The notes under the pieces are model-generated. The model was not told the origin of the DNA, searched no databases, and saw only the letters and a list, made by a program, of their open reading frames with translations. This document shows positions 2,915 through 40,292 of a stretch of DNA of 64,000 nucleotides, in pieces (the stretch's first letter is position 1; each line of letters begins with the position of its first letter). The stretch is from Marsupella aquatica (lineage: Eukaryota > Plantae > Marchantiophyta). The DNA is taken from the NCBI GenBank assembly GCA_973895155.1, contig OZ316891.1, positions 22,959,884 to 23,023,883 of the forward strand, read 5' to 3'. A program made the position numbers and the translations under genes.

Positions 2915-3265
2915 TCCAGTGAAAGAGAAAAGAGCTGGAGCAATTGCCTAACCACCTCCCCCAATCGTTCGGCAGCTGTTTCCACCTTGCTAGGTTGATT
3001 GAACAAGCAAATGAGCAAGTGTACAGAGTGTCGGTCCCCTCCCTACGAAGCCGCCTCCTGATGGCTTACCTGATCAAGCCCAGATTAGGTCATAACCCTA
3101 ATCCCACTTAATCGTGACCATTGGATCCTATCCTATCACAATCTCCCCCGATCGCATTGCAATCGGCTTCGATCCTTATTCCTCCCTTATTCTATCTACC
3201 TAATCTTTATTTAGCCATTATTTTAGGCTTAACTAAGTACTTTGTGATCCTGGCAAGGCATCACA
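1..3265 (-). mobile_element. Diverged sister copy of gypsy family A LTR (runs off window start)
   Basis: Ends in ...CCTGGCAAGGCATCACA at 3265, the same terminus (TGTGATGCC on minus) seen at 20608, 37470 and 40292. Encodes peptides homologous to the family A LTR ORF. Confidence 0.8.
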
Positions 3266-4384: not shown

Positions 4385-4456
4385 CTCCTCTTCCTCTCTC
4401 TATGTCTCTCCCTCCCTCCCCCTCTCTCTCTCCCTCCCTCTTCTCTTTCTCTCTCT
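4385..4456. repeat. CT-rich low-complexity tract
   Basis: Nearly pure pyrimidine run ctcctcttcctctctct... Confidence 0.7.
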
Positions 4457-15076: not shown

Positions 15077-17167
15077 TTAAACTCGTAATCGGAAATCTGT
15101 CAGAACTCGTTGTCTTTCAGGATACATTAGGGGCATTCTCTTCATTAAGTAACATGAATCAATACGAAGAGCTTCTCTATACATCCCAATTACATCATAA
15201 TTGTTACAGGTAGTAGCATACACTTGGGAATAATGATACAGGAACTCATCACTATTCATCATCCTAGAATAGAAGGGTCAAAGTCTCCATCTGACATCCC
15301 TGAAGTACCGGTTGAAGTGAGTCAGGGTCTGAGCAGTGACATTATTCCAGATCCTCTATTTCTCAGCCAATGAACTGGTTGAAACAAGGGTAACTTTGGG
15401 TCCTCAAGGTGTGTAATCGTGTTGTAGAGCAGTAGACTTCTTACTCTGCATCAGGAAGGAAACCACAAAATCCAGGGCATAGGCTGCAAGATTTCCAAAG
15501 TATGCCAAAACTAAGTTTGGATCCTCTACCTCTACATCACCTTGAAGTAGCATCATAGTAAGGATAGGTCGGAAGTATAGTGAGTCAGTCCAGAACTCAT
15601 CAAATTGTGCCATCTCCACTCTGGAAGTCCCAAAACTCCTGAGGTCGAAAATGTAGCTGGCCTCTGTTTTCTTGAGATAGTAGTATCTCCAAAACTCTCC
15701 AACCGGTGGTCTGTTGGCCTGCATAATCTTACAGGTTTCCACATACCTGCGTACTTGGAATTCTGGAGGTTTTGGGTATCTACTCTCGAAGACAGCATTC
15801 CGGGGTGTCTGAGTAGATGAAGTGACAACTGCTACTAAGTTGGGATTGGACCTTAGGGCAGTGTCAACATCTTTGAATCCCTGCCTTGGTGACGGTGTTA
15901 AGGAGTTGTCATAAGATCGAATGGAATCAAAATCAGAGGGTGGATCAGAATCTTCAGGTAGATCCTCTCGAATATAAGGATGCTCATCCTGTGACTGATT
16001 ATAGGGTGGTCCTTTGGTGGGTTCATAGTTGGAATCAGGACTGTAAGGGGGGGAACTTGGACTAGGAGAAGGGGTAGCAGTGGGACATTGTTGCACCAAG
16101 TTGCTAACTACAGACACTATCTTTCGAGGGTCACACTGCAATATCTCCAGTAAATCATCCACGATAGCTGCACAACTGATACTGTCTGTTACTGGAACAG
16201 GGTTACTGGATTTTAGAAGAGGAACCTGTTGGGTAGCAGGGGTGAGAGTCACATATTCTATTAGTGTTAATTCTCCTGGAGGAGAGGTCATCCTGATAGG
16301 GCTTAATTGGTCAGGGAATGGTGACTTCAAACTGACAGCTTCCATTCTTAAATTATTGACAGCATCATACAGACCATGATCACTGCAATTGAGAAGAGAT
16401 GCCAACTTATCAATGAGTTGCTGATTCGATTCTGCTTTCGAAGGTGTGAATGAACTGGTCCTTAGGTTGACAGCAGTAGTTGGATCTGCAACACCTTCTT
16501 GTTGCTCAGAGAAGTATTCATCTCCTTCAGCTCCAGATTGATCTCTCATATTAACTCCTGGTGAATACACCAGGTTATCCAGGGGGTGTCGAACCAACTC
16601 TAAGTTATGAGCAGGTGTACCTTCAAATTCCATCTCAACATCCACATTCTGATCATGAGAATCCAGGGGAATAGCATCCACTGGTTCTTCCATACTTATG
16701 TCTTCTTCAATGCCTAACTCAATCAGGAGTAAACCTCTTTCCGTTCTCTCCTCTGGATATAAACAATCATAAGCCTGATAGAGTTGGGACAAATAAACCT
16801 GCAGATGAGTGGGTCTGTCTGCCTTCATGGTCCTCACCTGATCCTTTATCACATTGAAAATTAACAAGGCCCAATTCACTTGGATGGCTCCACTGTGTGC
16901 AGCTACAATTATATTCACCAAAGCCACTGAACAGATGGTTGGCTTTTTCGGGTGTAAAACGGGTACTAGAAATTCCAGAAGCACTCTCAAATCTGGATAA
17001 GTGCACTGTGTTAAATTCCAGCCATTTGTGAGATTTGTGAGATTGCAAATCCTAGAGAAGTAGGGTCCCGTTGAAAGTAGCCGTAAGACGTCACGATCAC
17101 CAGCCGCCGACTCGCAAGGCACAACTCGTAAAGCCCTAACTAGTAAACTTGTAACTAGTAAACTCAT
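15077..17167 (-). CDS. Gypsy 3' accessory ORF (env-like position; 587 aa open plus a broken tail)
   Basis: GWNLTQC..DLRVLLEFLVPVLHPKKPT...VNWALLIF...YLSQLY resembles accessory domains of bryophyte LTR elements. It lies just upstream of the PPT/LTR. Confidence 0.6.
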
Positions 17168-17372
17168 AACTAGTAAACTTGTAACTAGTAATCAGTCGCG
17201 AACTCGTAAACTTGTAAACTCGTAACAGGAGTTTACTCGTAACCTTGGAAACCCGTAACTTATAGACAGAATGCTATCTCCGCTATGTTAGCAATAATTA
17301 GAGTTTAAACACCATAAAAAATTTAAAAATTTTCAGTTTCTTCATGCTTTTGGAATTACCCACTACTTACAT

Positions 17373-20300
17373 GGTGGCTCATTTGCAAGCAAACTAGGCA
17401 GACGACTACGGGAAGCCAACTATCAGCTGCTTAGGCAAGCACTCTGCGCAAGAGCAGATACTGGAAATCAAACTCAAGGAGGGTATGAGCAACGTCAATC
17501 AAGCTGCACATTTTTGGGGATGCTTGTTTGAATGGGCAACTGAGTACATTGGGACCTACGAGGACAAAGAATCGGAGAGAGCAGCTCAAGAACGGCAGGA
17601 GCTTGCTCGACTGTGGGAGCTACAAAAGTCTGCCTTCTTAGGAGGAGAACTTATCAAGGCCGAGTTCTTGTGGACTCCTACTACCAATCAGCTCGACGAC
17701 CTTTTGTTTTGCAAAAACAAAATTGTCGGCATCCGGGAAGCCATCAATTGCTGCAACGACATACACTGGGAGTTAAAGGGAAGCATAGAGGGGTGGATGA
17801 AGGCAACCATGCTAGGAGAAACATCCACGGCAGCCGCGATGAAGAGGAAATGAAACAACAACAAAGAGGCCACCCTGGCAAAAAGGACAAGGTCGGCGGC
17901 ACCAAGGAAGCCAGTAGACCAGGGGAACAGAAGGTAGGCAGAAGCTGAGGAGGAGGAGGTCGACCCCATCAATGCCATTCCAACAAAGGATGACACCTGG
18001 AAAGGCTGGGCGGCGACCCTACCAGAGGAAGTGCAATTACACTTTGCACGGGAGGAGGATGCGTGCTTTACGGCCATGCAGACCAAGAAGTACCAGGGCT
18101 TCATGGCCGGATCCGGCTTGGAAGCCTTCATAAAATTGCCATGGTTGAAGCCGGAGGTGCCAGATTCAGACTTATTAGAATTTGTGGGATCATGGGAGCC
18201 CGAGACCAATTCCACAAGGGTCTATGGGAAGGATTTCTATCTCACTCCCTGGGTGATTGCCGAAGCGTTTGGCTTGCCGATGGGCAATAAGACCAAAGTA
18301 GATACCAGGAAGACCTTGCCTGACAAGGAGTTCCGGTCGTTCCCAGGGCCATCAACAAACAATGGCTTCTTCTGGAACACCTGCACCAACCCGCACCTTG
18401 GGGAGATGATCGATTTCTTTCAAGTGACCATGCATTGCAACTTGCCAAGGGCAGAGATCGGCAAGGCACAGGTCTACTTGGCAGAGAGGCCAGACCCAAG
18501 CCAGGACTACAACGGGTACCTCCTCAACCAACTGAAGAAGATCTTGAATGAGGAACAGCGGGTGATTGGCATGGGAAGCGTATCCCAGCTTGGCTATTAC
18601 ATGCCGTTGTTGTGCCGGTATGCCCGAAGTCAGATCTTTGCCCCAATACTTCCCTTGCAGGTAAGGGCACTAGAGGAAGTTTTGGAACAGAGGCCGGTAG
18701 CAGAGAAGCCCAACCAGCCTGCTAGTCCTACGATCAAACAGGTGTTTAGGCCAAGGAAAGAAGACTTGCCGATGCAGCAACCAGGCATGCAAAATCTTCT
18801 AAAATTGCTGGAGAAGGAAAGGAGAACGGCATTGGCAACGGCAACACCACCGGTACAGGACGCTGCCCCGGAGGTTGGCCTAAGATGACTCATGAAGGAA
18901 AACCCCTTCATCGGAGCCAAGGAGAGGAGGAGGCCGGAACACGAGCCGGGAGTTCGAATGTATGTGGGAGCCTCAAGCTCCAAATCTGAGGCAGAGCAGC
19001 CTAAGGCTCCTACCCGCGGTATAGAGAGGGGGAAGCCGGTAGTCCAAGTAGTAGAGGCGATGGAGGACTACGGCAATGATAATTCCGGCTATGGGTCAAA
19101 CCATCATGTTCCAAGAGTAAGGACCTATGGCCGGTTCATCCCCACTCTTCCAAGAGTAGTTCGAGGGGACCCCACCCAGCAGAGCAGCCCCAAGTCTCCC
19201 CCACCGGATGTCGCTCCCCCGAGGTTTGACAGCATAAAACAGACAGCACAAGAGTTTCAGGAGCAACTCAGGGAGGAAGAGAGGGCAGCCCTGGCTAGGG
19301 AGAAAGATTTACCAGGAGGAGATTGGCCATAGGACATCACGCGACTTGCCAAAAAAAGAAGCAACCCTCTAGCCACGATTGAAGAGATCCGCAAGGCAGC
19401 TTGGGAGCAGAGGCCGCGGCAGTTGATGCCAATGACTTCTACTTACTCCACCTATGCTAAGGATAGAGCCATGGAGTACGGAGAGATGTGTGGGGAACTT
19501 GCGCTTAGCATCTTTGGGGAGGAGTTGGAGCAGGGACCCTTTTTCCAAAGGGAAATGTTGGAGAAGCGCCGATTAGAAGAAGCGGTGGCTTTGGAGAGAA
19601 GCAAGAAGGACAAGGTCATCCGACGGCTTAGGGAGAGAAAACCAAGGCAGAAGGCCTGCAAGCGACCAGGAAAGCCCAAGATGAGCTGCGGATTAAGCAG
19701 CATGAGCTAAACATCATGCAAGGGCAATTAGATGCCACTCAGTCTGACAATCAGATTATCAAAGATAAATTGACTCGGACCCAAGGAGAGTTGGCCGGCG
19801 CAGTCAAGGAAAGAGAGAAGTGGAAGCGAGAGCTAAGGGACGTAGAGGAGGCCCACTTAGCAACCAACAATTGGGCCATGGCGGAGATCCAGAGAAGGGA
19901 GAGGGCATTAAAGGGGGAACTCGAGGATATCCGTGAAGCCCTTGAGCAAAAGGAGGCCGAGTTAGGGAAATCCTATCAAGGGATCATTGCGCTACAGCAG
20001 GAGCTTGCATCCCTGACGGCCAGCTTCAAGGCCGACTTGCAGGAGAAAGACGACCAGCTCGATCAAACTTATGCCAAGATGGATAAGATGGAGTCTGAAG
20101 TCATGAAGAAGCTCAACAAGGAGCTAAGAGCGACCCAGGAAGAGAGGGCTACCTTAGGGAAAGAATTGCAAGACGCCCAAAAGGAGCTGGAGGAGGCGTG
20201 CAAGGACCTGGACAAGACCCAGGAGGAGTTGGAGGAAAGCACGAGGAAGATGGAGAACTTAGAGCGGCGGGCCGACAACCAAACGGAGCGGTTGTAGAAA

Positions 20301-20607
20301 CAAGCCACAGTATTTAAGTGCTTGGCTTCATCAAGTCCAACTCCAATTGGGGCAACCCAGTTTCCAGGGGTAGTACCGGCCAAAGGACAAGCCGAGACAC
20401 TCACCCCGATGCCGGAGGTAAGTGGCAAGGGAAAGGAATCGGCTGTCAAAACAGGGAAGAAGAAGAAGCGGAAACCTTCTGGGTCTGGGAGTTATACAGC
20501 TTCTCAAGCCGTTGTGACCAAGAAGGTAAACATGGCACCAACCTCCGGCATCAACACGGCGGTGGATCCATTGGTCCTAGGAAGTGGGGATGGCAAGGCC
20601 GAGGCCG
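17373..20607 (+). mobile_element. Family A LTR, partial copy with decayed LTR ORF (17485-20607)
   Basis: Collinear with ~20870-24190 and cut at 20607 by a new LTR start. Confidence 0.85.
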
Positions 20608-23600
20608 TGTGATGCCTAGCCAGGAATCACTGGGCTAGTTTAAAGTGGAAAAGGGAAGTGTACCCTAGAAACACATTAGTATAGTTACAAAAATAAGGAA
20701 AATATAAACAATTAAGGGTGACTATGGAACCCGAGCCGAGGCCGGAAGTAAGGACGCCAGGGGAGAGAACACGATTAGGGTTAGGGCACGCTAAGTGCCG
20801 GCGGCTAGGGGTCACCAACGGAAGAGAGACGCCAAGGAGAAGAGGGGTAAGGACCACTCGCAAGGAGTTGTGGCTCATTTGCAAGCACGAATTGGGCAGA
20901 TGACTACGGACGGCCAACTACTGTCAACTGCTTAGGCAGGTACTCAGGGTGGGAGCAGATACCAACTATCAACTCGAGAAGGGTATGAGCAACGTCAATC
21001 AAGTGGCACATTTTTGGGGATGCCTGTTCGAACGGGCAATTGAGTACATTGGGACTTACGAGGACGAAGAATCGGAGAGAGCAGCTCGAGAACGGCAGGA
21101 GCTCGCTCGATTGTGGGAGCTGCAGAAAGCTGCCTTCTTAGGAGGAGAACTCATCAAGGCCAAATTCTTGTGGACTCCTACTGGTAACGAGCTAGATGAC
21201 CTGTTGTTTTGCGAAGACAGAGTCGTCGGCATCCGCGAAGCCATCAAACGCTGCAACGACATACATTGGGAGTTGAAGGGTAGCATAGAGGGTTGGACAA
21301 AGGCAACCATGCTAGGAGAGACATCCACGGCAGCGAAGATGAAGAGAAAGGGAAACAACAACGAAGAGGCCACCCGGCAAAAAGAATGAGGTTGGCGGCA
21401 CCAAAGAAGCCAGCCGAACAGCAGAGCAGGAGGCAGAGAGCACCGAGGAGGAGGAGGAGGTCGACCCCATCAACGCCATTCCAACGAGAGATGACACCTG
21501 GAAAGGCTGGGCGGCGATCCTCCCCGAGGAGGTCCAATTACACTTTGCAAGGGAGGAGGATGCATGCTTTACGGCTATGTAGACTCGGAAATATCAGGGC
21601 TTCATGGCCGGATCCGGCTTGGAAGCCTTCGTAAGGTTACCGTGGCTGAAGCCGGAGGTACCGAATTCAGACTTACTAGAATTCGTGGGATCATGGGAGT
21701 CCGAGACCAATTCCACAAGGGTGTATGGGAAGGATTTCTATCTCACTCCCCAAGTGATTGCCGAAGTGTTTGGCTTGCCAATGGGCAATAAGACCAAGGT
21801 AGATACCAAGAAGACCTTGCTAGACACGGAGTTCAGGTCGTTTCCAGGGCCTTCAACAAAGAATGGCTTCTTCTGTAACACCTGCACCAACCCGCATATA
21901 GGTGAGATTTCTTGCGGGTGACCATGCATTGCAACTGGCCGAGACCAGAGATCGGCAAGGCACAGGTCTATCTGGCAGAGAGGCCAGACCCAAGCCAAGA
22001 CTACAATGGTTACCTCCTCACTCAACTAAAGAAGATCTTGAAGGAGGAACAGCTGGTGATCGGCAAGGGAAGCGTGTCCCAACTTGGCTATCACATGCCG
22101 CTATTGTGCCGGTATGCCCGAAGTAAGACCTTTGCCCCGGTACTTCCCCTACAGGCAAGGGCACCAGAGGAGGTTCCGGAACAGAGGCCGGCAACGGAGA
22201 AACCCAACCCGCCGGACAGTCCTACAATCGAGCAGGTGTTTAGGCCAAGGACAGAGGACTTGCCGATGCAGCAACCAGGCATGCAGAATCTGCTGAAATT
22301 GCTGGAGAGAGAAAAGAGAACAGCAACGGCAACGGCAACAATATAGGACACTGCTCCAGAGGCAGGCCTAAACCGGCTTACAAGGGAAAACCCCTTTACT
22401 GGAGTCAAAGAGAGAGGGAGGCCAGAACATGAGCCGGGAGTCTGTATGTATGTAGGAGCCTCTAGTCCCGAAGCCGAGGAGAAGCAGGCCGTAGCTCCCG
22501 GCCACGACAAGGAGAACAAGAGATCAACACGGGAGCCGGAGGAGGAACCAAGACCGATGAAAGGTGAAGCCGTGTTCACGACAAAACCAGGAGAACAGCG
22601 GGAGAAGCCGGTAGTCCAAGCCGAGGAGGAGGTGGAGGACTACAGCAATGATAACTTCGGCTACGGGTCGGATCATCATGTTCCAGGAGTAAGGACCTGT
22701 GGTCGCTTCATCCCCACGCTCCCAAGAGTAGTCCGAGGGGACCCGACCCAGCAGAGCAGCCCCGAGTCTCCCCCACCAGATGTTGCTCCCCCGAGCTTTG
22801 ACGGCATAAAACAGACGGCGCAGGAATTTCAGGAGCAAATCAGGGAGGAAGAGGAGGCAGCCCTGGCTAGGGAGAAGGATTTACCAGGAGGAGAATGGCC
22901 AGAGAACATCAGGCGGCTTGCAGAAAAATGAAGCAGCCCTCCAGCCACAATATAAGAGATCCGCAAGGCGGCTTGGGAACAAAGGCCGCGATGGATGATG
23001 CCGATGACTTCTACTTCCTCCACCTATGCTAAAGATAGAGCCATGGAGTACGGGGAGATGTGTGGGGAATTGGCGCTCAGCATCTTTGGGGAGGAGTTGG
23101 AGCAGGGACCCTTTTTCCAGAGGGAGATGTTGGAGAAGCGCCAATTAGAAGAAGCGGTGGCCTTGGAAAGAAGCAAGAAGGACGAGGTCATCCGTCGGCT
23201 TAGGGCAAGGGAAGCCAAAATCGAAGACCTGAGGGCGGCCAGGAAAGCCCAAGATGAGTTGCGGATTAAGCGGCATGAGCTAAATATCATGCAGGGCCAG
23301 TTGGATACCGCACAGTCAGATAACCGGATTATCGAGAATAAACTGACGCGGACCCAAGGAGAGTTGGCTGATGCGATCAAGGAGCGAGAGAAGTGGAAGC
23401 GAGAGCTGAGGGATGCAGAGGAGGCCCACATAACAGCCAACAACCGGGCCATGGCAGAGACCCAGAGAAGGGAAAGGGCATTGAAGGGGGAGCTCGAGGA
23501 TATCCGCGGAGCCCTTGAGCAGAAGGAGGCCGAGTTAGGGAAATCATATCAAGGGATTATTGCGCTGCAGCAGGAGCTTGCATCCCTGACGGCCAGCTTC

Positions 23601-25292
23601 AAGGCCGACCTATGGGAGAAAGATGACCAGCTCGACCAGACTTATGCCAAGATGAATAAAATGGAGTCTGTGGTCGTAACGGAGCTCGACAAAGAACTAA
23701 GAGAAACCCAGGAGGAGAGGGCTACCTTGAAAAAGGAATTGGAGGAAGCCCACAGGGAGCTGGAGGAAGCCCAGAAAGAACTGGAGGAGGCACGCAAGGA
23801 CCTGGACGAGGTGCAAGAGGAGTTGGAGGAAAGCACGCGGAGGCTGGAGAACTTACAACGACAAGCCGACAACCAAACGGAGCGGCTGAAGAAACAAGCC
23901 GCATTATTTAAGTGCTTGGCTTCATTAGGCCCAACTCCAATTGGGGCAACCAAGTTACCAGGAGTGGTACTGGCCGAAGGACAAGCCGCGCCACTTGCAC
24001 CAGTGCCGGAAGTAAGTGGGAAGGGGAAGGGACCAGCTGCGAACCAGAGAAGAAGAAGAAGCGGAAACCTTCTGGGTCAAGGAGTAATACGGCTCCACAG
24101 GCCGAGGTGACCAAGGAGGTAAACCCAGCACCAACCCCAGGCAGGGTCACGGCAGAAGATCCAACTACCCTAGAAGAAGGGGATGCCGAGGCCTTGGCTC
24201 AGGCCGAAGCCGTGGCAAAGGCCCAAGCCATAGCTGATGCCGAAGCCGATGTCGAGGCCGAAGCCGAATGTGGACCCAGTCAGGCCGATGGAGAGTTGAC
24301 TCAGTCCAGGGCAGGTAATCTGTCAGAGAACGAACCTACGGTAGTGGCTGAGGAGGAAGCGTTGGGGGCGTCCATTGAGGAACAAACACCGCTGCCATGA
24401 CGGTGGTGGAGGGCCGCTCCTTTCAAGGAGAGCGGACGTGGAGGGAGGAGGCATGAGTGGGCAGGGCGGGCTCAGATCTCTAAGTTTAGGATTAGGATCA
24501 GGACCAGGAGGCGGCCCTGACACTTAGCTTAGTGGGATTGCGGTTCCACTGGTAAGAGCAACACTTGTACTTCTGCCTCGCTGTACATAGGTAGATTCAG
24601 TTAGGTAGATTAGGCTTACGCTGCAAAGAATTAGGCGGATCCACTACCAGGATAAATACCTGGGCAGCGGGGAGCTCAGGGCCTCTTCTTTAGCAAGTTT
24701 TTAGTTGCACTAGCCGGGCTGGGATCAAGTAGTAAGAGAAGCTCTCGGTTAGTCATACAGTGACCCTTGTGTATATTCATGTTTCCTCATGCCTAAGAGC
24801 TGAATAGAGTTGGCCTCACGGCTTAGTTCGCAGAGCTTGTGTATGAGATGTACTGTTTGTATGGCAAGTGCATGGTATGACTCAGTCAGAAGGAGTCATT
24901 TTGCTATTTGTGTGTCGCATTAACTTGTGTGAAGAGTGCCCACATCAAAGGAAAGTAAGCAAGGGAGTGAGAGTTGGATGTGTCAAGCTGAGAGAGGTCT
25001 TAGCGGCTTAACCAAGCCTATTGGGGATCATTTCGGCGGCGGAATCCAAACATACCTAACCAGAAGGAGGGGAAGACAAGGAAAGGCCTAGATTAGGCCG
25101 ACTACGTATCTCATGAGCCGATGAAGGATCTGTCCAGTATATGTGTGTAAAATGTTAATAGTAGTAGAGGAGGAGGTTAGCAGCGTCCCATGCCGCTAAG
25201 CCGCGAAAACGGCCTCGCCAAGCGCAAAACCTGCGGGAATCGGCTTGTGCTGGGGGGTTTCTTGGGTTTAGGGAGCCATGGGGCGCACCACA
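20608..25292 (+). repeat. Complete family A LTR, 4,685 bp
   Basis: TG...CA with a 7/8 terminal inverted repeat. Both termini recur as sharp homology borders elsewhere (31094, 37470, 40292). Confidence 0.85.
20985..24400 (+). pseudogene. LTR-encoded ~1,100-aa protein: N-terminal domain, plant-transposon (Transposase_32/PMD-like) domain, linker, long coiled coil, acidic tail
   Basis: Starts MSNVNQ..HFWGCL. Contains GLEAFVRLPW..LLEFVGSW..T.VYG..F.LTP.VIAEVFGLP.G and a coiled coil at ~23200-23900. Lesions differ between copies. The domain name is by eye. Confidence 0.75.
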
Positions 25293-25296: not shown

Positions 25297-25313
25297 TGGC
25301 ACTAGATGGAGGG
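25297..25313 (+). other. Primer-binding site
   Basis: TGGCACTAGATGGAGGG after CA+TTTT. Resembles the PBS of Tat-type non-chromoviral gypsy elements; tRNA not assigned. Confidence 0.7.
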
Positions 25314-25361: not shown

Positions 25362-28300
25362 ATGACTGAACCTACGCCAAGGGAGGAAAGAGCGATTCAA
25401 CGGGAGAGAGCTCGTCTGCAGCAGCTCGCCGGGTGGCATGATACACAGCGACTGAGAGGGGCAGAAAGAGCTGGTAGCTCCGAAGCTGGGAGTGGCATCG
25501 AAGAAGAGATACCAGAAGAAGAGTCGGTAGGAAGAAACGTGTGTCTGAGTCTGAATCCGACGTGGAACTATCAGACCCCCTCCTCATGGGGGAACCTGAG
25601 GCACGGCCAGGCGATAGGCCAGGGACCAGACTGAGCCAACGGTCGCGCATTCATTACAAGGCGTTTCATGGGAGAGGAGATGAGGATCCGGACAAATGGT
25701 TGGATGATTTCGAAGGAACCGCTGTAGCAAATGGAGAATCGGCCATCAAGATGCAGATTCTTCCCGGCCTGTTCAAGGGTGAGGCTAGGCCTTGGTACAG
25801 AGCATTGAATGTGGAAGATCAAGCCATTTGGGATATCTTCAAAACACTATTTGTTAAGGAGTTTTGACCCATTGGAACCTCAGAACTAGCAGTGCTGAAG
25901 TTGGGACGACTTCGGTTCAAGGAGAACAAATCCTTCAGGAAGTTCTTGCAACGCTTCCAAAAACTGGTAAGACGTACAAAGACCAATGCATCGGAAGGTA
26001 TGCAACTTCAATGGTTGGTGAATGCTTTGCCACAGAAGATGAGTTTTGCAATAAGAAAGGAGAACCCAAAGACTTTAGCCGAGGTAATTAAAGATATTCA
26101 ATTATACATTAATGGGGTATTTACAAACGACAGGAAACAGCAAACAGTAACAGCAAACAGAAACTGGTAACAGGAAAATGAGTGGTAATTTTTTTTGAAT
26201 TTTTTTTGAATTTTTTTTTGAATTTTTTTTTTGAATTTTTTTTTTAAAATTTTTAAATTTTTGTGCTAGCGCCCACAGCTAGCCAAAAAATGTTGTAATT
26301 TAATTTTTTTTGGAAAATTTGACTTTTTAGAAAAAGATTTGACATGGTTGTTTTTCCTGGTAACAGTAACTTTTTACTGGGAACAGGAAAATTTTTGCTG
26401 GTACCAGTAAACCTGTTTCCTGTTTACTGTCATGCATGCCATACCCTACATTAATGCAGATATCACAAGCCGGAAGAAACAGCTTAAGTCTGAGAGTTCC
26501 TCATCGGAGGAAGGATCACCCCAATAAGAAAAAGGATAAGAAAAAGAAACACTCTAAGAAGTCAAGAAATGATAACTCAAGCTCGGATAGTGGAGGTAGC
26601 AAGAGTGAGTCATCTTCTAGTTCTGAAGAAGAAAAAACTAGGAAAAGGAAGGGCAAAAGAAGAGGGAAGACGAAAGTCAATCTGGAGGCTAAACCACCAG
26701 ATAACATTGTAGCCCTTACCAAGCAGCTTAAAGCTATAATAGCAGAGGTGAAGCCGAAGAAGAAGGTAGTGCAGGAGGATAGCTCTGTATGGTGTGCCTT
26801 ATGTTATAAAACCGGACACAATAAAGATGCATGTCCTAAGCTCAATACTAGTCATGTTCGGCATGTGGCTGAAGTTAGACCATGTCAGGGAGAAGTATAA
26901 TACTTTCTAGGAGATGCCGTTGATAGTGTTTTCGGCATCAGTGAGACTGGAGCACGAGACCTATCCAACCGACCTGCATCTCTCTGGTCAGGATTAAGGA
27001 ACAATCCAGGAGAGATGTATCCTCGGATTATTCAGAATCCGTCAGTACCTCCTAGGCCGAATGTGCAAAGATTTGCGGCATGCTATAATTGTGGTCAACC
27101 TGGCCATTTTGCTAGAGAATGCCCGAATGCACGCAAACAAGGTGATGGACAGCCAGCTCAGCTATGTATGGGATGCCGACAGGAGGGTCACATGCTAGGA
27201 CAATGTCCTACTTGGTTGGCAGGATTGGCCGCAAATCATAAGCTCTTGCCGGTCAAGGTCTTGCCGCCAAGTACTACCCCAGGAGGAGTTCAAATCAACC
27301 ACATCGAGCTCGGATGGCAAGTGGATGCCGAGGCAGAGTTTGGACCATCTGATGATGAGACCGAGGCCCTATCAACATTTTCAGAAGAGGATATGGATCA
27401 TGATTGTTACCGGGTCTCTACTCGATCAACCAGAAGGAAGGAAAGATGGGATGGGCTGGCCAAAAATAAAGGGAAGGTTAAGGAAGAGAAGATCGACTCT
27501 TCGTCAACATCAACAGAAGGAGAAGGAAGGGCACCGTCAACACAGGTAAGCCATGAACCCACCAGTGAGCCCAATCCTTCATAGGATAGTGACTTCAATC
27601 GAGATCACCCAAAGTTGTTCTACCCATCTATCACGGCTAGTGTTAAGGAACAGCTGCGAGAATTAGAAACCTTGGAGAACACTGAAGCCATAGCCAAGGA
27701 TGTGGAACGAGCAAAAGCACTGTTTGCTTCGGAGGATCCAACGGCTGTGGAAATCAGCGTGAAGAAATAGGCCGAAGCCGAGATAAAGACACTGCCAGAA
27801 GAGAAGCCGATAGTTCCCTATGACCTGGCTAAAGATGTGCTAGAATCTAGAGTCTCGGCAACAGTTGGTCAACTATTGAAAAATAGCCCGTACTTCCGGA
27901 AGCAGTTAAGGAAGGCGATTCTCGGCAAACCGAGATTACCCAAGGTAGCAACCAGATCCGATGTGCTGATGATAGAAGAAGATCAAGGAGCCCCAGCATT
28001 ACCATTAATGATTCAAGGAGAATTATTACTTCGAGTACCCATCGATGGAGGATCAGGGGTATGTATTATGATTGATTCAACAGCAAAGGGGTGGGGTCTA
28101 ACACCAAAGATGACTGGAAGAGTGTTGAACATGGCCAATGGGTATCAGGTCATTCCCACGGGAGTGTTAATTGGCATCAAGACAGAGATAAGAGGTATCT
28201 TTTTTAGCATTAACTATGTAGTAATGAAGCCGGTAAATCCTACGTCATTCCGGCTGTTGATTGGTAGGCCATGGCTATACCTAGCCAAGGTAATAGAGGA

Positions 28301-29985
28301 TTGGGGTAAGAAGGAGTTCACTTTTGGGACCCCCTCTATCACGGTATCCTGGGATACCAAGGATGACCGCAGAAGAAGCATCAGGGAGGTAGACGGGTAC
28401 GATAGTGGACTGGAATCAGCCGATGAGGTACAATGGCTAGAATGCCTCGCTGACCAAACCAAAGAAAGTGTCTTTGGACCAGAGGTATCCCCCAGCGGAC
28501 TATAGCAAGAACCTATGGAAGGTGACTTGGAGGATTGTGACGATGAAGCTGAGGACTGCTTTGCCATAGAGTCCACCTTTTTAGCTTCAATTCCGGAGGA
28601 AGCACAAGAGGTAAGCCAGTTGGAAACGGCTAAGTGGGGAGCTATACCCGAGATGGTGGATTTTCCTCAAGCGTTGTGGCAGAGTCGACAAGATCCACAA
28701 TGCCATCTATCATCGGCAAGGAGTTAAAAACCAAGGGATCGGCATACAAGCCGATTACGAGGGCAGAACAAATCGAGGCCCTAGTAGAAGCCGGGAGAGC
28801 ACATCGGCCTGACCCTCAGGAGGAAGAGACGGATGAGATGCACAAACACAATCCAGAGCCGAGGCAGGAAGGGAAACCGACTACCAATTCAAAACCAGAT
28901 AGAGCGGCAAGGGGACAATCTGTGGACACCAAGGAAGAAACCGACTCGGCTAGTACTGCCGAGATTCCAGTCTATGGAGGTATGAGACTGGAGAGGTTGG
29001 AGGCCGGGTTGGACCCAAATTTGAAGAAGCAGATTAATATGATCCAAGCATGGCAATACTGGAAGCTCGACTTAAGAGAAGGAAGGGAACTGAACTTGGG
29101 GCGGGACCTAGCACTTGAGCTGGAGAAAGAGATCAGTGAATTACTAATTGAATTTCAAGATGTGTTCGCATGGAGTCATCAAGATCTGAAAGGAGTAGAC
29201 CCAAAACTGGGAGAGCACCGAATTGATCTCATGTTAGGGGCCAAATCATTTTGACAACTGATTCGAAGGATGAACCCTAAGTATTCCCTGATGGTCAAAA
29301 CGGAAATCGACAAACTAGTGGAAGCCGGATTCATCACTCCAGTCCTGCATTCAGACTGGGTGTCTCCCATTGTGATAGTTCCCAAGAAAGCTGGACCCGA
29401 TGGTAAACCCAAGATCCGGGTTTGTCAGGATTACAGGAAGCTGAATGAAGCAACGTTAAAAGACCATTTTCCTTTACCCTTTACTGATATGGTAGCCAGT
29501 CATGAACTATATTCATTCATGGATGGGTACTCTAGTTATAACCAAATCAGGATTAGGCAGGAAGACCAAATTAAGACAACCTTCATCACGGAATGGGGGA
29601 TCTATGTCTTCAATTGTATGCCGTTTGGACTCTGTAACGCACCAGCTATGTTTCAACGATTGATGGTGAACATTTTCCATGATTACTTGAGAAAGTTCAT
29701 GGAAATCTTCATTGATGACTTTGCAGTATTCGGGAAGGCATCGAAACATGCTAAATATCTAAGGAAGACCTTCATGAGATGCAGAGAGGTACGTCTCAAG
29801 TTACACCCAGATAAATGTTTCTTTGGGGTAACCAAAGGTGTGCTACTAGGTCACAAGGTATCAAAGAAGGGCATTGAGATTGACAAAGGTAAGCTAGCAG
29901 TATGGCTTGACATCATGCAACCTAAGAACATAAAGGATGTAAGATCCTTCTTGGGGTGCATTGGTTATTATCGCCGGTTCATCAA
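25362..29985 (+). pseudogene. gag-pol remnant (capsid, CCHC knuckles, aspartic protease, reverse transcriptase)
   Basis: FHGRGDEDPDKWL, CYNCGQPGHFAREC, IDGGSG..LLIGRPWL, WVSPIVIVPKK, CQDYRKLN, MPFGLCNAP, FIDD and FLGCIGYYRRFI. Confidence 0.92.
26115..26446. mobile_element. Non-autonomous Mutator-like MITE (~330 bp) inserted in gag
   Basis: TSD TACATTAATG at 26105-26114 and 26447-26456. Imperfect TIRs GGGTAT..GACAG.AAACAG.AAACAG and an internal (T)nGAA array. Confidence 0.75.
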
Positions 29986-31093: not shown

Positions 31094-33377
31094 TGTGGTG
31101 CGTCCCATGGCTCCCTAAACCCAAGAAACCCCCCAGCTCAAGCCGATTCCCGCAGGTTTCGTGCTTGGCGAGGCCGTTTCCGCGGCTTAGCGGCATGGGA
31201 CGCTGCTAACCTTCTACTACTACTATTAACATTTTACACACATATACTGGACAGATCCTTCATCGGGTCATGAGATACGTAGCCGGCCTAATATAGGCCT
31301 TCCCTTGTCTTCCCCTGTCTTCCCCTCCGTCTTGTTAGGTATGTTTGGATTCCGCCGCCGGAATGATCCCCAATAGGCTTGGTTAAGCCGCTAAGACCTC
31401 TCTCAGCTCGACACATCCAACTATCACTCCCCTGCTTACTTTCCTTCCTTCTGTTGATGTGGGCACTCTTCACACAAGTTAATGCGACACACAAATAGCA
31501 AAATGACTCATTCTGACTGAGTCATACCATGCACTTGCCATACAAACAGTACATCTCATACACAAGTTCTGCGAACTAAGCCGTGAGGCCAACTCTATTC
31601 AGCTCTTAGGCATGAGGAAACATGAATATACACAAGGGTCACTGTATGACTAACCGAGAGCTTCTCGTACTACTTGATCCCAGCCCGGCTGGTGCAAACT
31701 AAAAACTTGCTAAAGAAGAGGCCCTGAGCTCCCCGCTGCCCAGGTACTTATCCTGGTAGTGGATCCGCCATTCTTTGCATCGTAAGCCTAATCTACCTGA
31801 CAGTAATCTACTTGCCCGAATCTACCTATGTACAGCAAGGCAGGAGCACAAGTGTTGCTCCTACCAGTGGAACCGCAATCCCACTAAGCTAAGTGTCAGG
31901 GCCGCTCCTGGTTCTGATCCTAATCCTAAACGTGGAGATCCGCGCCCGCCCTGCCCACTCACGCCTCCTCCCTCCACGTCCGCCCTCCCTAAAAGGAACG
32001 GCGCCCTTGCACCGTCACGACACCGGTGGTGGATCCTCAATGGACGCCCCCAACACTTCCTCCTCAGCCACTGCCGTTGGCCCGCCTACTGACAGATTAC
32101 CTGCCCTTGACCGAGTCAACTCTCCATCGGCCTGACTGGGTCCACCTTCGGCTTCAGCCTCGACACCGGCCTCGGCAATACCCACGGCTTCGGCCTCAGC
32201 CACTCCCACGGCTTCGGCTTCAGCCACTCCCTCGACTTCGGCCTCCCCTTCCCCTAGGGTAGTTGGATCCTTAGCCGTGACCCTGTCTGGGGTCGGTGCT
32301 GGGTCTACCTCCTTGATCACCACGGCCTGTGAAGTCGTATTACTCCTTGACCCTGGAGGTTTCCGCTTCTTCTTCGTTGGTGGCTCGGCAGCTGGTCCCT
32401 TCCCCTTCCCACTTACTTCCGGCACTGGTGCAGTTGACGCGGCTTGTCCTTCGGCAATTACCACCCCTGGTAACTGGTTTGTCCCAACGGGAGATGGACC
32501 TGCTGCAGCTAAGCATTTAAATACTGCGGCTTGTTTCTTCAGCCGCTCTGTTTGGTTGTCGGCCTGCCGCTGTAGGTTCTCCATCTTCCTCGTGATTTCC
32601 TCCAACTCCTCTTGGGTTTCATCCAGGTCCTTACGTGCCCCCTCCAGCTCGTTTTTGGCCTCCTCCTGCTCCCTGTGGGCTTCCTCCAATTCCTTCTTCA
32701 AGGTAGCCCTCTCCTCCTGGGTTGCTCTTAGCTCCTTGTCGAGCTCTGCAATGATGACAGACTCCATCTGGTTCATCTTGGCGTAAGTCTGTTCGAGCAT
32801 CTCGTCCTTCTCCCTTAGGTCGGCCTTGAAGCTGGCCGTCAGGGATGCAAGCTCCTGCTGCAGCGCCATAATCCCTTGATAGGATTTCCCTAACTCGACC
32901 TCCTTCTGCTCAAGGGCTCCGTGGATTTTCTCGAGCTCCCCTTTCAACGCCCATTCCTTTCTTTGGGTCTCCGCCATGGCCCGGCTGTTGGCTGTTATGT
33001 GGGCCTCCTCTGTATTCTTCAGCTCTTGCTTCCACTTCTCCCTCTCTTTGATCGTGTCGGCCAACTCTTCCTGCGTCTGAGTCAGTTTATCCTTGATATT
33101 CTGATTATCAGCCTGCGCGGCGTCCAACTGCCCCTGCATGATGTTCAGCTCATGTCGTTTAATCCGCAGTTCATCTTGGGCTTTCTTGGCCGCCCTTAGA
33201 TTTTCAATCTCGGCTTCCATCCTCCTAAGCCGCCGAATGACCTCGTCCTTCTTGCTTCTCTCTAAAGCCACCGCTTCTTCTAATTGGTGCTTCTCCAACT
33301 GCTCCCTGTGAAAAAAGGGTCCTACCTCCAACTCCTCTCCAAAGATGCCGAGCGCAAGTTCCCCACACATCTCACCA
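31094..33377 (-). mobile_element. Family A LTR, 3' half, with intact 451-aa C-terminal part of the LTR ORF (32015-33370)
   Basis: Reverse complement of ~23050-25292, including the CA terminus. Not followed by a PBS. Confidence 0.85.
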
Positions 33378-33379
33378 GA

Positions 33380-36300
33380 TCACTGTATGACTAACCGAGA
33401 GCTTCTCTTACTACTTGATCCCAGCCCGGCTGGTGCAAACTAAAAACTTGCTAAAGAAGAGGCCCTGAGCTCCCCGCAGCCCAGGTATTTATCCTGGTAG
33501 CGGATCCGCCTAATTCTTTGCAGCGTAAGCCTAATCTACCTAACAGTAATCTACCTGCCCGGATCTACCTATGTACAGCAAGGCAGGGGCACAAGTGTTG
33601 CTCCTACCAGTGGAACCGCAATCCCACTATGCTAAGTGTCAGGGTCGCTCCTGGTCCTGATCCTAATCTTAAACTTGGAGATCAGCACCCGCCCTGCCCA
33701 CTCACGCCTCCTACCTCCACGTCCGCCCTCCCTAAAAGGAACGGCGCCCTTGCACCGTCACGACACCGGTGGTGGATCCTCAATGGACGCCCCCAACGCT
33801 TTCTCCTCAGCCACTGCCATTGGCCCGCCTACTGACAGATTACCTGCCCTTGACCAAGTCAACTCTCCATCGGCCTGACTGGGTCCACCTTCGGCTTCGG
33901 CCTCGACACCGGCCTCGGCAACACCCACAGCTTCGGCCTCAGCCACTCCCACGGCTTCGGCCTCGCCTTCTTCTAGGGTAGTTGGATCCTTTGCCGTGAA
34001 CCTGTCTGGGGTCGGTGCTGGGTCTACCTCCTTGGTCACCACGGCCTGTGGAGTCGTATTACTCCTTGACCCTGAAGGTTTCGCGCTTCTTCTTTGTTTC
34101 CGGCTTGGCAACTGGTCCCTTCCCCTTCCCACTTACTTTCGGCACTGGTGCAGGTGGCGCGGCTTGTTCTTCGGCCAATACCACTCCTAGTAACTGGTTC
34201 GCCCCAACGGGAGATGGACCTGCTGCAGCTAAGCATTTAAATACTGCGGCTTGTTTCTTCAGCCACTCTGTTTGGTTGTCGGCCCGCCGCTGTAAGTTCT
34301 CATCTTCCTCGTGATTTCCTCCAACTCCTCCTAGGTCTCATCCAGGTCCTTACGTGCCCCCTCCAGCTCGTTTTTGGCCTCCTCCTGCTCCCTGTGGGCT
34401 TCCTCCAATTCCTTCTTCAAGGTAGCCCTCTCCTCCTGGGTTGCTCTTAGCTCTTTGTCAAGCTCTGTCACGATCTCAGACTCCATTTTATTCATCTTGG
34501 CATAAGTCTGATCGAGCATATCGTCCTTCTCCCTTAGGTCGGCCTTGAAGCTGGCCGTTAGGGACGCAAGCTCCTGCTGCAGCGCAATAATCCCTTGATA
34601 GGATTTCCCTAACTCGGCCTCCTTCCGCTCAAGGGCTCCGCGGCTTTTCTCAAGCTCCCCCTTCAACGCCCATTCCTTTTTTTGGGTCTCCGCCATGACC
34701 CGGTTGTTGACTGCTATATGGGCCTCCTCTGCGTCTCTCAGCTCCTTCTTCCATTTCTCCTGTCCTTGATTGTGTCGGCCAATTCTCCCTGAGTCTGAGT
34801 CAGTTTATCCTTGATAATCTGACTATCAGCCTGCGCTGTGTCCAACTGCCCCTGCATGATGTTCAGCTCATGCCGCTTAATCCGCAATTCATCTTGGGCT
34901 TTCTTGGCCGCCCTTAGATCTTCAATGTCGGCTTCCATCCTCCTAAGCAGCCGAATGACCTCGTCCTTCTTGCTTCTCTCTAAAACCACCGCTTCATCTA
35001 ATTGGTGCTTCTCCAACTGCTCCCTATGGAAAAAGGGTCCTACCTCCAACTCCTCCCCAAAGATGCCGAGCGCAAGTTCCCCACACATCTCACCATACTC
35101 CATGGCTCTATTCTTAGCGTAGGTGGAGTAAGTAGAAGTGATCGGCATCGCCCATCGCGGCCTCTGCTCCCAAGCCGTCTTGCGGATCTCTTCAATCGTG
35201 GCTAGAGGTTTGCTTCCTTTTTCGGCTAGCCACCTGATGTCCTCCGGCCAATCTCCTCCTGGTAAATCCTTTTCCCTAGCTAGGGCTGCCTCCTCTTCCT
35301 GCCTGATTCGCTCCTGAAATTCCTGCGCCGTCCGTATTATGCCGTCAAAGCTCAGGGGAGCAACATCTGGTGGGGGAGACTCAGGGCTACTCTGCTGGTT
35401 GGGGTCCCCTCGTACTACCCTTGGAAGTGTGGGGATAAACCGGCCACAGGTCCTTACTCCTGGAACGTGATGGTCCAACCCATAGCCGGAGTTATCATGG
35501 CTGCAGTCCTCCACTGCCTCCTCTACTTCTTGGACTTCCGGCTTCTCCCTCTCTTCTTCGTCGGTAGGAGCTTCAGGCAATTCTGCCTCAGATTCAGAGC
35601 TTGAGCCTCCTACGTACATTCGAACACACGGCTTGGATTCTGGCCTGATTCTCTCCTTATTTTCGATAAAGGGGTTTTCCCTTCTAAGTCTGCTTAGGTT
35701 GACCTCTGGGGCAGTGTCCTGCATTGTTGCCGTTGTCGTTGTCGTTGCCGATCTCTTTTCTTTCTCCAGTAGTTTCAGCAGATTCTGCATGCCTGGTTGC
35801 TGCATTGGCAAGTCTTCCTTCCTTGGCCTAAACACCTGCTCAATCGTAGGGCTAACAGGTGGTTGAGGCTTTTCTGCTACCGGCCTCGGTGCTGGAGCTT
35901 CCTCGGGTGTCCTTACCTGCAAGGGAAGTACTGGGGCAAAGGTCTGACCTCCGGCATACCGGCACAACAGCGGCATGTGGTAGCCAAGCCGCGACACGCT
36001 CCCCATGCCGATTACCTGCTGCTCCTCCTTTAAGATCTTCTTCAATTGGTTGAGGAGGTGCCCGTTGTAGTCCCGGCTTGGGTCTGGCCTCTATGCCAGA
36101 TAGACCTGTGCCTTGCTGATCTCTGCCCTCGGCAAGTTACAATGCATGGTCACCCGCAAGAAGTCGATCATCTCTCCTATGTGCGGGTTGGTGCAGGTGT
36201 TCCGGAAGAAGCCATTCTTCGTTGATGGCCCGGGGAACGACCGGAACTCTTTGTCAGGCAAGGTCTTCCTGGTATCAACCTTGGTCTTATTGCCTATCGG

Positions 36301-37470
36301 CAAGCCAAACACTTCGGCAATTACCTTGGGAGTAAGATAGAAATCCTTCCCATATATCCTCGTGCAATTGGTCTTGGGTTCCCATGACCCCACGAATTCT
36401 AATAGGTCTGAATCCGACACCTCCGGCTTCAGCCATGGTAATCTTACAAAGGCCTCTAAGCCGGATCCGGCCATGAAGCCTTGGTACTTCTTGGTCTGCA
36501 TGGCCGTAAAGCATGCATCCTCCTCCTGTGCAAAATGTAGTTGCACCTCCACTGGTAGAGTTGCCGCCCAGCCCTTCCAGGTGTCATCCCTGGTTGGAAT
36601 GGCATTAATGGGATCGACCTCCTCCACTTCGGCTTCTCCCTGCCCTCTGCTCTGCTACTTGGCTGGCTTCGTTGGTGCCGCAGACCTCGTTCTTTTGGCC
36701 GGGGTGGCTTCATCGTTGACGGCTCCCTTCCTCTTCATCTCGGCTGCCATGGAGGTTTCTCCTAGCACCGTTGCCTGGATCCACCTTTCCGTGCTACCCT
36801 TCAATTCCCAGTGTATGTCATTGCAGTTCTTGATGGCCTCTCGAATGCCGATGATTCTGTCTTCGCAAAACAAAAGATCGTCGAGCTCATTGGAAGTAGG
36901 AGTCCACAAGAACTTGGCCTTGATGAGTTTGCCTCCTAAGAAAGCCGTTTTCTGCAGCTCCCACAATTGAGCGAGCTCCTGTCGTTCTCGAGCTGCCCTT
37001 TCTGATTCTTCGTCCTCGTAAGTCTTGATGTACTCAGTTGCCCGTTCGAACAGGCATCCCCAGAAATGTGCCGCTTGATTGACGTTGCTCATACCCTCCT
37101 TAGGTCGATCGTCGGTATCTACTCTCTCCCCGAGTGCTTGCCTAAGCAGCTGACAGTAGTTGGCCTCCCGTAGTCGTGTCTGCCTAGTTCGTGCTCGCAA
37201 ATGAGCCACCATCTCCTGCAAGCGCTCCTTACCCCTCTCCTCTTCCGGTCCTTCCTCCCGTTGATCCTTCCTAGCCGCCAATGCTTAGCGCGCCCTAACC
37301 CTAATCGAGTTTTCACCCCCAACGTCCTTACCTCCGGCCTCGGCCCGGGCTCCATAGTCGCCCCTAATTGTTTATATTTTCCTTGTTTTGTCCCTATACT
37401 AAGGTGTTTCCAGGGTGCATTCCTGCTTTACCTACTTAACTGGCCGAGTGATTCCTGGCTAGGCATCACA
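33380..37470 (-). mobile_element. Family A LTR lacking its last ~550 bp; decayed ORF 33758-37090
   Basis: TG terminus at 37470. ORF pieces of 208, 178, 435, 121 and 124 aa. Confidence 0.85.
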
Positions 37471-40292
37471 GGCCTCCTCTGCATCCCTTAGCTCCCGCTT
37501 CCATTTCTCTCTTTCTTTGACTACGCCGGCCAACTCTCCTTGGGTCCGAGTCAGTTTATCCTTGATAATCTGATTGTCAGACTAAGCGGTATCCAACTGC
37601 CCCTGCATGATGTTTAGCTCATGCCGCTTAATCCGTAGCTCATCTTGGGCTTTCTTGGCCACCTGTAGGACTTCCACCTCAGCTTCCTTCTCCCTAAGCC
37701 GCCGAATGACCTCATCCTTCTTGCTTCTCTCCAAAGCCACCGCTTCTTCTAATCGGTGCTTCTCCAACATCTCCCTCTAGAAAAAGGGTCCCTGCTCCAA
37801 CTCCTCCCCAAAGATACTGAGCGCCAGGTCCCCACACATCTCCCCGTACTCCATGGCTCTATCCTTAGCATAGGTGGAGTAACTAGAAGTCATCGGCATC
37901 AACCACCGCGGCCTCTGCTCCCAAGCCGCCTTGCGGATTTCTTCTATGGTGGCAAGAGGGTTGCTTCTTTTTTTGGCAACCCGCCTGATGTCCTCCGGCC
38001 AATCTCCTCCTGGTAAATCCTTCTCCCTAGCTAGGGCTGCTTTCTCTTCCTCCCTAAGTCGCTCCTGAAATTCTTGTGCCGTCTGCTTTATGCCGTCAAA
38101 GCTTGGGGGAGCAATCTCTGGTGGGGGAGACTCGGGGCTACTCTGTTGAGTGGGGTCCCCTCGAACTACTCTTGGAAGCGTGGGGATAAATTGGCCACAG
38201 GTCCTTACTCCTGGAACATGATGATCCGACCCATAGCCGGAGTTATCATTGTTGTAGTCCTCCACCGCCTCCTCCACTACTTGGACTCCCGGCTTCTCCC
38301 TTTGTTCCCCTGGTCAGTCGTGAAAATGGCCTCTGGTTCCTCTGGTTTCCAGGCTGTTGTCTCCCTCTGCTCTCCGCGGGAAGGAGCCTTTAGGCTGCTC
38401 TACCTCTGATTTGGGGCTTGAGGCTCCCACATACATTCGCACTCCCGGCTTGTGTTCTGGCCTCCTGGTCTCCTTGGCTCCGGTAAAGGGGTCTTCCCCT
38501 CTGAGTCGGCTTAGGCCGACCTCTGGGGGAGCGTCCTGTATCGGTGCCGTTGCCAAAACCGTTGCCGTTGCCGGAACCATTCTCTTTTCCTTCTCCAGCA
38601 ATTTCAGCAGATTTTGCATGCCTGGTTGCTGCATCGGCAAGTCTTCTTTCTTTGTCTGAAATACCTGCTCGATCGTTGGACTGTCGGGCTGGTTGGGCTT
38701 CTCTGGTGCCAGCCCTTGCTCTTCCCCTTCCTCCGGTGCCCTTGCCGATAGGGGAAGTATTGGGGCAAAGATTTTACTTTTGGCATACCGGCACAAGAGC
38801 GGCATGTGATAGCCAAGCCAGGACACGCTTCCCACGCCGATTACCTATTGTATCTCCTTCAAGATCTTCTTCAGTTGGTTGAGGAGGTACCCGTTGTAAT
38901 CTCGGCTTGGGTCTGGCCTTTCTACCAGGTAGACCTGAGCCTTGCCGATCTCTGCCCTCGGCAAGTTACAGTGCATGGTCACCCACAAGAAATCGACCAT
39001 CTCTCCAATGTGCGGGTTGGTGCAGGTGTTCCGGAAGAAGCCATTCTTTGTTGATGGTCCTGGGAACGACCGGAACTCCTTGTCAGGTAAGGTCTTCCTA
39101 GTATCAACCTTGGTCTTATTACCCATCGGCAAGCCAAACACCTCAGCAATCACCCGGGGAGTGAGATAGAAATCCTTCCCATACACCCTCGTGGAATTGG
39201 TCTTGGGTTCCCATGATCCCACAAATTCTAATAAGTCTGAGTCCGGCACCTCTGGCTTCAACCATGGTAATCTTACGAAGGCTTCCAAGCCGGATTCGGC
39301 CATGAAGCCTTGGTACTTCTTGGTTTGCATGGCCGTAAAGCATGCATCCTCCTCCCGTGCAAAGTGTAATTGCACTTTCTCTCGTAGGGTCGCCACCCAG
39401 CCTTCCCAGGTGTCATCGTTTGTTGGAATGGCCTTGATGGGATCGACCTCTTCCTCTTTGGCATCTCCCCTTGTCCTGCTTTGCTGCTCTACTGGCTTCC
39501 TAGGTACCACGGACCTCGTTCTTTTTGCCAGGGTGGCCTTTTCGTTGTTGTTTCCTTTCCTCTTCATCTTGGCTGCCGTGGATGTTTCTCCTAGCAAGGT
39601 TGCCTTCGTCCACCCCTCCGTGTTACCCTTCAACTCCCAGTGTAGGTTGTTGCAGCAATTGATGGCTTCCCGGATGCCGACAATTCTGTTTTCGCAAAAC
39701 AGCAGGTCGTCAAGCTGATTGGCAGTAGGAGTCCACAAGAACTCGGCCTTGATAAGTTCTCCTCCTAAGAAAGCCGTCTTCTGCAGTTCCCAAAGCCAAG
39801 CAAGCTCCTGCCATTCTCGAGCTACTCTCTCTGATTCTTTGTCCTTGTAAGTCCTGACGTACTCACCTGCCCGTTTGAACAGGCATCCCCAAAAATGTGT
39901 CGCTTGATTGATGTTGCTCATACCCTCCTTGAGTCGATCGTTGGTATCTATTCCCACCCCGAGTGCTTGCCTAAGCAGCTAACAGTATTTGTCCTCCCGT
40001 AGTTGTCTGCCCAGTTGGTTCTTGCAAATGAGCCACTATTCCTCGCGAGCGGTCCTTACCCCTCTCCTCTGGTCTTCCCTTGTTGGTCACCCCTAGCCGT
40101 CGACGCTTAGCGCGCCCTAACCCTAATCATGTTCTCTCCCCCGGCGTCCTTACTTTCGGCCTCGGCTCGGGTTCCATAGTCACCCTTAATTGTTTATATT
40201 TTCCTTGTTTTGTTCCTATACTAAGGTGTTTCCAGGGTACACTCTTGCTTTACCATGTAAACCGGGCTAGTGATTCCTGGCTAGGCATCACA
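37471..40292 (-). mobile_element. Family A LTR, 5' part, with intact 370-aa N-terminal ORF piece (38845-39957)
   Basis: TG terminus at 40292 lies inside a CACTA exon. Interrupted at 37470 by another A LTR. Confidence 0.85.

Follow-up and report, generated by a model that had tools for sequence, protein, structure and literature searches.

A probable 4.7-kb long terminal repeat of a liverwort Ty3/Gypsy retrotransposon that holds a selected gene with a predicted VANC21-like core

The long terminal repeats (LTRs) of plant retrotransposons are commonly viewed as non-coding, and the formation of a solo LTR as the inactivation of the element. Here we describe a decayed gene that very probably lies inside the 4.7-kb LTR of a high-copy retrotransposon in a 64,000-nt stretch of the liverwort Marsupella aquatica (contig OZ316891.1; this whole stretch is the window, and all positions below are window positions). 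The closest described systems are the following. Accessory open reading frames (ORFs) are placed in the internal region of their elements, and their function is given as unknown (PMC7264820); the LTRs of the Athila/OTA group reach about 5 kb (PMC6317226), and the 3′ ORF of a sunflower Athila codes for a Transposase_32 protein with a predicted nuclear location (PMC11728184). VANC21 binds to a short motif and lifts silencing and methylation (PMC5735166); VANC is related in structure to MAIN and PMD, and coiled-coil oligomers have been modelled for VANC and for proteins with an Athila domain (PMC13547354; bioRxiv 2024.09.27.615353), VANC being described as dicot-specific (PMC13547354). In mouse mammary tumour virus (MMTV), the sag gene is located in U3 with a promoter of its own and is present twice per provirus (PMC9412291).

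The Marsupella locus shares something with each of these and departs from each. Like the accessory genes of the Athila/OTA group (ATHILA ORF-1, PF03078; Transposase_32, PF20167; Ogre PMD), it belongs to a non-chromovirus Ty3/Gypsy element, is oriented in the sense direction and joins a globular domain to a coiled coil; unlike them, it is enclosed by the LTR termini, exceeds them in length with ~1,139 codons, carries an additional N-terminal domain and gives no Pfam match. With VANC21 of VANDAL21 (DUF1985) it shares the predicted core fold, the coding by a transposable element and the arrangement of a conserved domain with variable linkers and a coiled coil, whereas VANDAL21 is a Mutator-like DNA transposon of Arabidopsis, the identity is 8%, and a search for tandem motif arrays gave none here. 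With MMTV sag/naf it shares the probable position inside an LTR and, as proposed here, the place in U3 and a promoter of its own, although MMTV is a vertebrate retrovirus, its protein and function are unrelated, and its sag ORF and LTR are much shorter. The fold predicted for this accessory gene is a known one, while its place within an LTR is unusual: no gene inside the LTR of a plant retrotransposon was found in the literature searched, and papers under subscription, as well as the supplementary data of PMC6317226 on eORF positions and types of the primer-binding site (PBS), may bear on this novelty.

The window is composed of nested plant transposons, with LINE, CACTA-like and Gypsy remains. 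Self-alignment uncovered five pieces (R, A, B, C and D) of a 4,685-bp unit and a distant relative, E. The features of unit R are:

20608..25292, + strand: probable 4,685-bp LTR, unit R, a 5′-type copy followed by a PBS (inverted ends, terminus behaviour in public contigs, self-alignment)
20608..20615, + strand: left terminus TGTGATGC
20703..20708, + strand: TATAAA box, candidate promoter of the LTR gene, kept in 3/3 copies
20985..24400, + strand: decayed ORF of ~1,139 codons (alignment of copies, stops, selection)
20985..21350, + strand: helical N-terminal domain of the protein, ~120 aa, no clear fold match
21463..22154, + strand: core domain, ~230 aa, with a predicted VANC21-like fold and leads to ATHILA ORF-1/Transposase_32
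22956..23900, + strand: conserved block and long coiled coil
24401..25292, + strand: non-coding 3′ part with GATAAATA at 24651 and, near 24760-24950, a tract rich in TG
25297..25312, + strand: PBS-like motif starting with TGG, 4 bp after the CA end

An earlier note on this DNA, made without database searches, had proposed that a gene of about 1,100 codons is enclosed between a TG terminus and a CA end followed by a PBS. This layout was confirmed, with the TG at 20608, the ORF of ~1,139 codons at 20985-24400, the CA at 25292 and the PBS-like motif from 25297. The two ends, TGTGATGC at 20608 and GCACCACA ending at 25292, form an inverted match at 7 of 8 positions (TGTG...CACA). The 14-mer of the TG end occurs four times in the window against 0.35 expected, exactly at 20608 (+), 37470 (−) and 40292 (−), all in the 4.7-kb family, and with one mismatch at 3265 (−), in a member of a sister family ~68% alike. 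The flanks of all four sites are unlike one another, so that the sharp border at four sites claimed in the note is real, one of them belonging to the sister family. At two of the three family sites (20608 and 37470) the flank is the internal sequence of another copy of the unit. The remaining copies, delimited by self-alignment, are:

17371..20607, + strand: piece A, covering LTR positions ~260-3590 and directly adjoining the TG end at 20608
37471..40292, − strand: piece B, LTR positions 1-2819, its TG end in a non-LTR repeat
33380..37470, − strand: piece C, LTR positions 1-4156, its TG end abutting piece B
31094..33379, − strand: piece D, LTR positions 2445-4685, of the 3′ or solo type
1..3265, − strand: distant sister family E, with the same TG terminus followed by N-domain, core and coiled-coil region

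Piece D retains the coiled-coil third of the ORF (its last third) along with a CA end (31094, −) whose flank is unrelated and is not a PBS. Family E resembles the 4.7-kb family at 53% in the N-domain and 62% in the core, and has the coiled-coil region; since the order is identical, the layout of a TG terminus followed by the ORF must be old.

The behaviour of these ends was followed in four public sequencing runs (X1-X4), used as contig sets; they come from two studies with two organism labels, and one may be the source sample. Across the TG end, depth drops 2.6-, 10.6-, 11.4- and 37.9-fold, i.e., in 4/4 runs, with several high-depth contigs ending at the terminal base and others continuing into unlike sequence; in X1, seven loose ends occur at the TG end, with an agreement of just 0.53. 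At the CA end, at least five different joints connect 25292 to other places inside the unit, as expected when sister LTRs have received insertions of 3′ or solo LTRs. Thus, both ends behave as mobile termini and, as the ORF between them was under purifying selection (below), the best reading is that the 4.7-kb unit is an LTR holding the gene, as the earlier note had it; we regard this as highly probable. As a separate observation, self-insertion of the family is frequent (two of the three window TG ends and at least five CA-end joints), for which targeting and mere abundance are both possible explanations.

The start of the ORF is most likely the ATG at 20985, since coding constraint becomes clear only from this point and a Met occupies the same column in sister family E and in the homologue P0026; the 260 bp upstream have no in-frame constraint. 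An upstream ATG at 20724 was rejected, as its frame contains frameshifts in 3/4 copies and lacks in-frame constraint. In the small sample of 20853-20984, substitutions lean to one codon position of a different frame, which may mark a short ORF, upstream or antisense. The stop codon of the ~1,139-codon frame, at 24398-24400, is common to 3/3 copies. The lesions do differ between the pieces, as had been noticed before: all 17 premature stops scored (four short stretches being unscanned) are private to a single copy, and the same holds for all 8 frameshifts that lie outside two low-complexity stretches of poor alignment. The ratio of nonsynonymous to synonymous substitution rates (dN/dS; Nei-Gojobori, with pairs that share ancestry and are hence non-independent) is 0.12-0.35 in 16/16 pair tests across four blocks of the ORF, namely 0.14-0.31 in the N-domain (3 pairs), 0.12-0.21 in the core domain (3 pairs), 0.18-0.22 in the linker block (3 pairs) and 0.14-0.35 in the coiled-coil region (7 pairs), against 0.30-2.62 in shifted-frame controls. 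Given the private stops and these low ratios, the gene was functional during the spread of the family; by these sequence measures the ORF is one that evolved under purifying selection and later decayed.

The non-coding parts of the LTR point to where within it the gene lies. The TATAAA at LTR position 96 is the only one in the LTR and the most conserved block of its 5′ end in the public contigs. The last ~900 bp are 92-95% identical between copies, as against 82-88% in the ORF, and an Rfam search of this 3′ part gave no match. We consider 24401-25292 a likely, or at least plausible, promoter/R/U5 core, with GATAAATA at 24651 suggesting a TATA-like element and the TG-rich tract lying downstream of it. 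On this layout the ORF is probably in U3 rather than in R or U5. Between pieces R and D, 24401-25292 differs by ~5%, compared with ~0.42 at the synonymous sites of the adjacent ORF, a contrast that reflects either strong constraint or recombination between subfamilies.

The earlier note proposed no function for the protein; here a fold was predicted for its core domain. The model was computed for a naturally stop-free copy (17962-18660) with an alignment of 35 sequences (27 domain matches or cluster members, 4 window rows and 4 further members), and attained a predicted local distance difference test score (pLDDT) of 88.7 and a predicted template-modelling score (pTM) of 0.85. Among 48,161 PDB chains its sole clear match is the VANC21-DNA complex 9lnk (Z 8.0, 213 aligned residues, root-mean-square deviation (rmsd) 5.0), the next chain having a Z of 2.1; the sister VANC21 entry 9lnj gives a Z of 8.3 and an rmsd of 4.2 with 213/233 residues aligned, and Foldseek likewise ranks VANC21 first (TM 0.46, E 0.76). 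The match is borderline in absolute terms, yet it is isolated and covers the whole predicted domain. Two Atlas language-model searches gave weak leads to ATHILA ORF-1 and Transposase_32 with scores of 0.83-0.88. The N-domain recovered only generic helical matches in its fold search (best Z 6.0), and a BFVD fold search gave nothing at E<=0.001. Between the N-domain and the core domain sits a basic stretch, which by its pattern we take to be like a nuclear localization signal.

At the sequence level, an initial protein search gave 0 matches among 7,995 candidates; when 1.84 billion proteins were searched with a profile there were 32, of which 5 have E<=1e-10, and one, the repeat protein P0005, was excluded from the alignments. 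The named matches, 3 of the 10 looked up, are all from Calypogeia fissa, and a second profile search gave 22 matches, 21 of them labelled Calypogeia. No loci were found in metagenome, viral and prokaryote collections. The DUF1985 profile did not match the protein, and a profile search of the PDB sequences did not return VANC21. An Env-like role was rejected, no similarity of that kind being seen. We tentatively assign the protein an anti-silencing or chromatin-regulator function, an assignment in which the predicted fold is set against a good deal of doubt. Taking the parts together, we lean, if not strongly, towards an LTR of a non-chromovirus Ty3/Gypsy element with a selected U3 gene, coding for a VANC21-like nuclear regulator that would shield its family from silencing.

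Several results weigh against this interpretation. With respect to the protein, the VANC21 match stands at the threshold of the tool (Z ~8, 8% identity, Foldseek E 0.76); the Atlas leads fall below 0.9 with only 124-144 shared features; PF03078 and PF20167 match 0 of the 35 aligned domain sequences (among the matches listed, 25 of 34), and were found in 0/34 sequences in a second Pfam test; the core domain has no excess of basic residues (23 K+R vs 28 D+E); and a k-mer count of the non-coding parts of the LTR gave no cluster of tandem motifs resembling the VANC targets. With respect to selection, the acidic C-tail shows no constraint (dN/dS 0.77-0.80, 2 pairs), and one shifted-frame control reached 0.30. 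With respect to the LTR, the 64-kb window contains neither a complete element nor a pair of target-site duplications (TSDs). No matching flanks of this kind were found among the window ends; for the insertion at 40292 this follows from the other half of the interrupted repeat being absent from the window. A polypurine tract precedes the TG at 0/4 window sites, and none is displayed in the public-contig view either. Finally, the depth of the 3′ block relative to the core domain is mixed (0.93, 1.25, 1.21 and 2.1) and relative to the ORF median is 1.15-3.9, an excess that fits an ORF present once per element or LTRs from which the ORF was deleted; the greater divergence of the ORF also bears on these ratios.

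Other depth ratios fall nearer the expectation for a gene-bearing LTR. At the PBS, depth amounts to 0.39-0.62 of the value at the LTR end, which would follow from roughly half of the CA ends belonging to 5′ LTRs, and the ratio of the 3′ block to the 5′ TATA block is 1.07-1.5; both are weak evidence since depth is not copy number. Low depth past 25367 is likewise no proof of an excess of solo LTRs, since the PBS depth is ~40-60% and the internal region may be more diverged. Altogether the depth ratios are mixed as to whether the ORF is present twice per element.

The first alternative retains the long LTR and its gene, and makes the protein a structural or trafficking accessory factor, associated with the particle, with nuclear import or with the tethering of integration. 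The long coiled coil and the weak similarity to the VANC sequence (8%) agree with such a role, and tethering could account for the self-nesting seen at two of the three window TG ends and in the public-contig joints, even if abundance alone can produce the same picture; reviews call the function of accessory ORFs unknown (PMC7264820). Yet the only fold match is to a DNA-bound anti-silencing factor, and we hold this alternative to be unlikely.

A second alternative shortens the LTR to ~850 bp, beginning after a purine run near 24432-24445, so that each element would have a single ORF, located in the 3′ internal region as it is in Athila; the TG at 20608 would then be a border of another kind, and the layout in the window would reflect a tandem array. 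The purine run does follow the ORF stop, the last ~900 bp resemble a full LTR core and are more conserved, the 3′/ORF depth is at least 2 in X4 and, by the ORF median, in X2, and the loose ends among the matches listed leave room for a terminus near the purine run. Against this, the terminus marked by the TG at 20608 is genuine, its flanks being unlike both in the window and in 4/4 runs; this TG pairs in inverted orientation with the CA end, which the TG after the purine run mismatches; and sister family E has the same terminus upstream of the ORF. We consider this alternative improbable. Equally improbable is an ORF in R or U5, with the TATA at position 96 starting the genomic RNA and the gene as its first cistron, like an Ogre 5′ ORF shifted ahead of the PBS: although this box is the sole canonical TATAAA and is well conserved, the TG-rich, polyadenylation-like tract lies downstream of the ORF, which, if the tract is real, excludes U5, and the strong-stop DNA would have to be very long with an R of >4 kb.

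Returning to a U3 gene for an anti-silencing regulator, we infer the following course of events. An Athila-type accessory ORF downstream of pol would have been absorbed into U3 as plus-strand priming shifted upstream. Its transcription would run from the TATA at LTR position 96 to a polyadenylation zone within the same LTR, and a second promoter near LTR position 4045 would initiate the genomic RNA, such that every LTR, whether 5′, 3′ or solo, would constitute a complete promoter-gene-terminator cassette. The protein may form oligomers through its coiled coil and bind motifs within the LTR's conserved 3′ part; its VANC21-like fold is what suggests a nuclear oligomeric regulator countering the silencing of the family's DNA. 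With such a protein encoded within it, each terminal repeat, even a solitary one, would be a small anti-silencing cassette. The most far-reaching form of this proposal, in which a bryophyte Ty3/Gypsy lineage moved a VANC-like anti-silencing gene with its promoter and terminator into the LTR, and trans-acting solo LTRs keep the family active, is rather doubtful; if true, it would place VANC-type anti-silencing in retrotransposons far beyond dicots.

Any selected LTR gene would have a doubled dose per element and would outlast removal through solo-LTR formation. With the VANC21-like fold, the long-standing question of what the Athila/Tat accessory ORFs do can be tested in terms of anti-silencing; the fold would also challenge the idea that VANC-type factors arose solely in dicot DNA transposons. 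Moreover, LTR finders and ORF surveys restricted to the sequence between LTRs would overlook or misplace such genes.

The internal region that follows unit R identifies the type of host element:

25559..29983, + strand: decayed gag-protease-reverse transcriptase (RT)-(start of RNase H, RH), cut by a TG-starting element near 29986

A zinc knuckle lies with gag, ahead of the protease region and RT. The RT is 64-67% identical to polyproteins of Calypogeia and others that bear RT, RH and integrase (INT) families, and 39-49% to those of seed plants; in a tree containing no REXdb-labelled references it groups with liverwort rows including Calypogeia and Riccia (97/93). Among named sequences, the closest to the element are those of liverworts. 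The window copy itself ends before the integrase. The RT similarity and the RT-RH-INT order of the relatives both conform to a non-chromovirus Ty3/Gypsy element. The additional RH domain (aRH) that is a feature of Tat was found neither between protease and RT in this truncated copy nor in the domain list of the relative P0065. By these sequence criteria the host is a bryophyte-type non-chromovirus Ty3/Gypsy element, to which we assign no clade. We take the PBS-like motif to be of the tRNA-Asn type and the motifs of the element to be Athila-like. Within the gag frame, 26107-26685 is an AT-rich interruption containing poly-T runs and short repeats, which may be a small non-autonomous DNA element, and 29986-31093 is another TG-starting, C-rich repeat, which truncates pol and adjoins the CA end of piece D.

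Elsewhere in the window we observed a LINE-like RT with zf-RVT (9577-12723, −) and the remains of a CACTA-like transposase (40573-42750; Transposase_21, DUF4218). Three stop-free frames with no Pfam match, at 15404-17191 (−), 56174-57406 (−) and 59059-59667 (−), encode 595, 410 and 202 aa, respectively, and are likely accessory ORFs of other elements. A second Gypsy-like family, nested and inverted, occupies 44829-54303; its frames resembling gag and protease lie at 46711-47310 and 49983-51825. Tandem arrays at 54607-55490, 60939-61896 and 62143-63087 have periods of 40, 401 and 169 bp, respectively, and short TTTAGGG runs occur near 60790.

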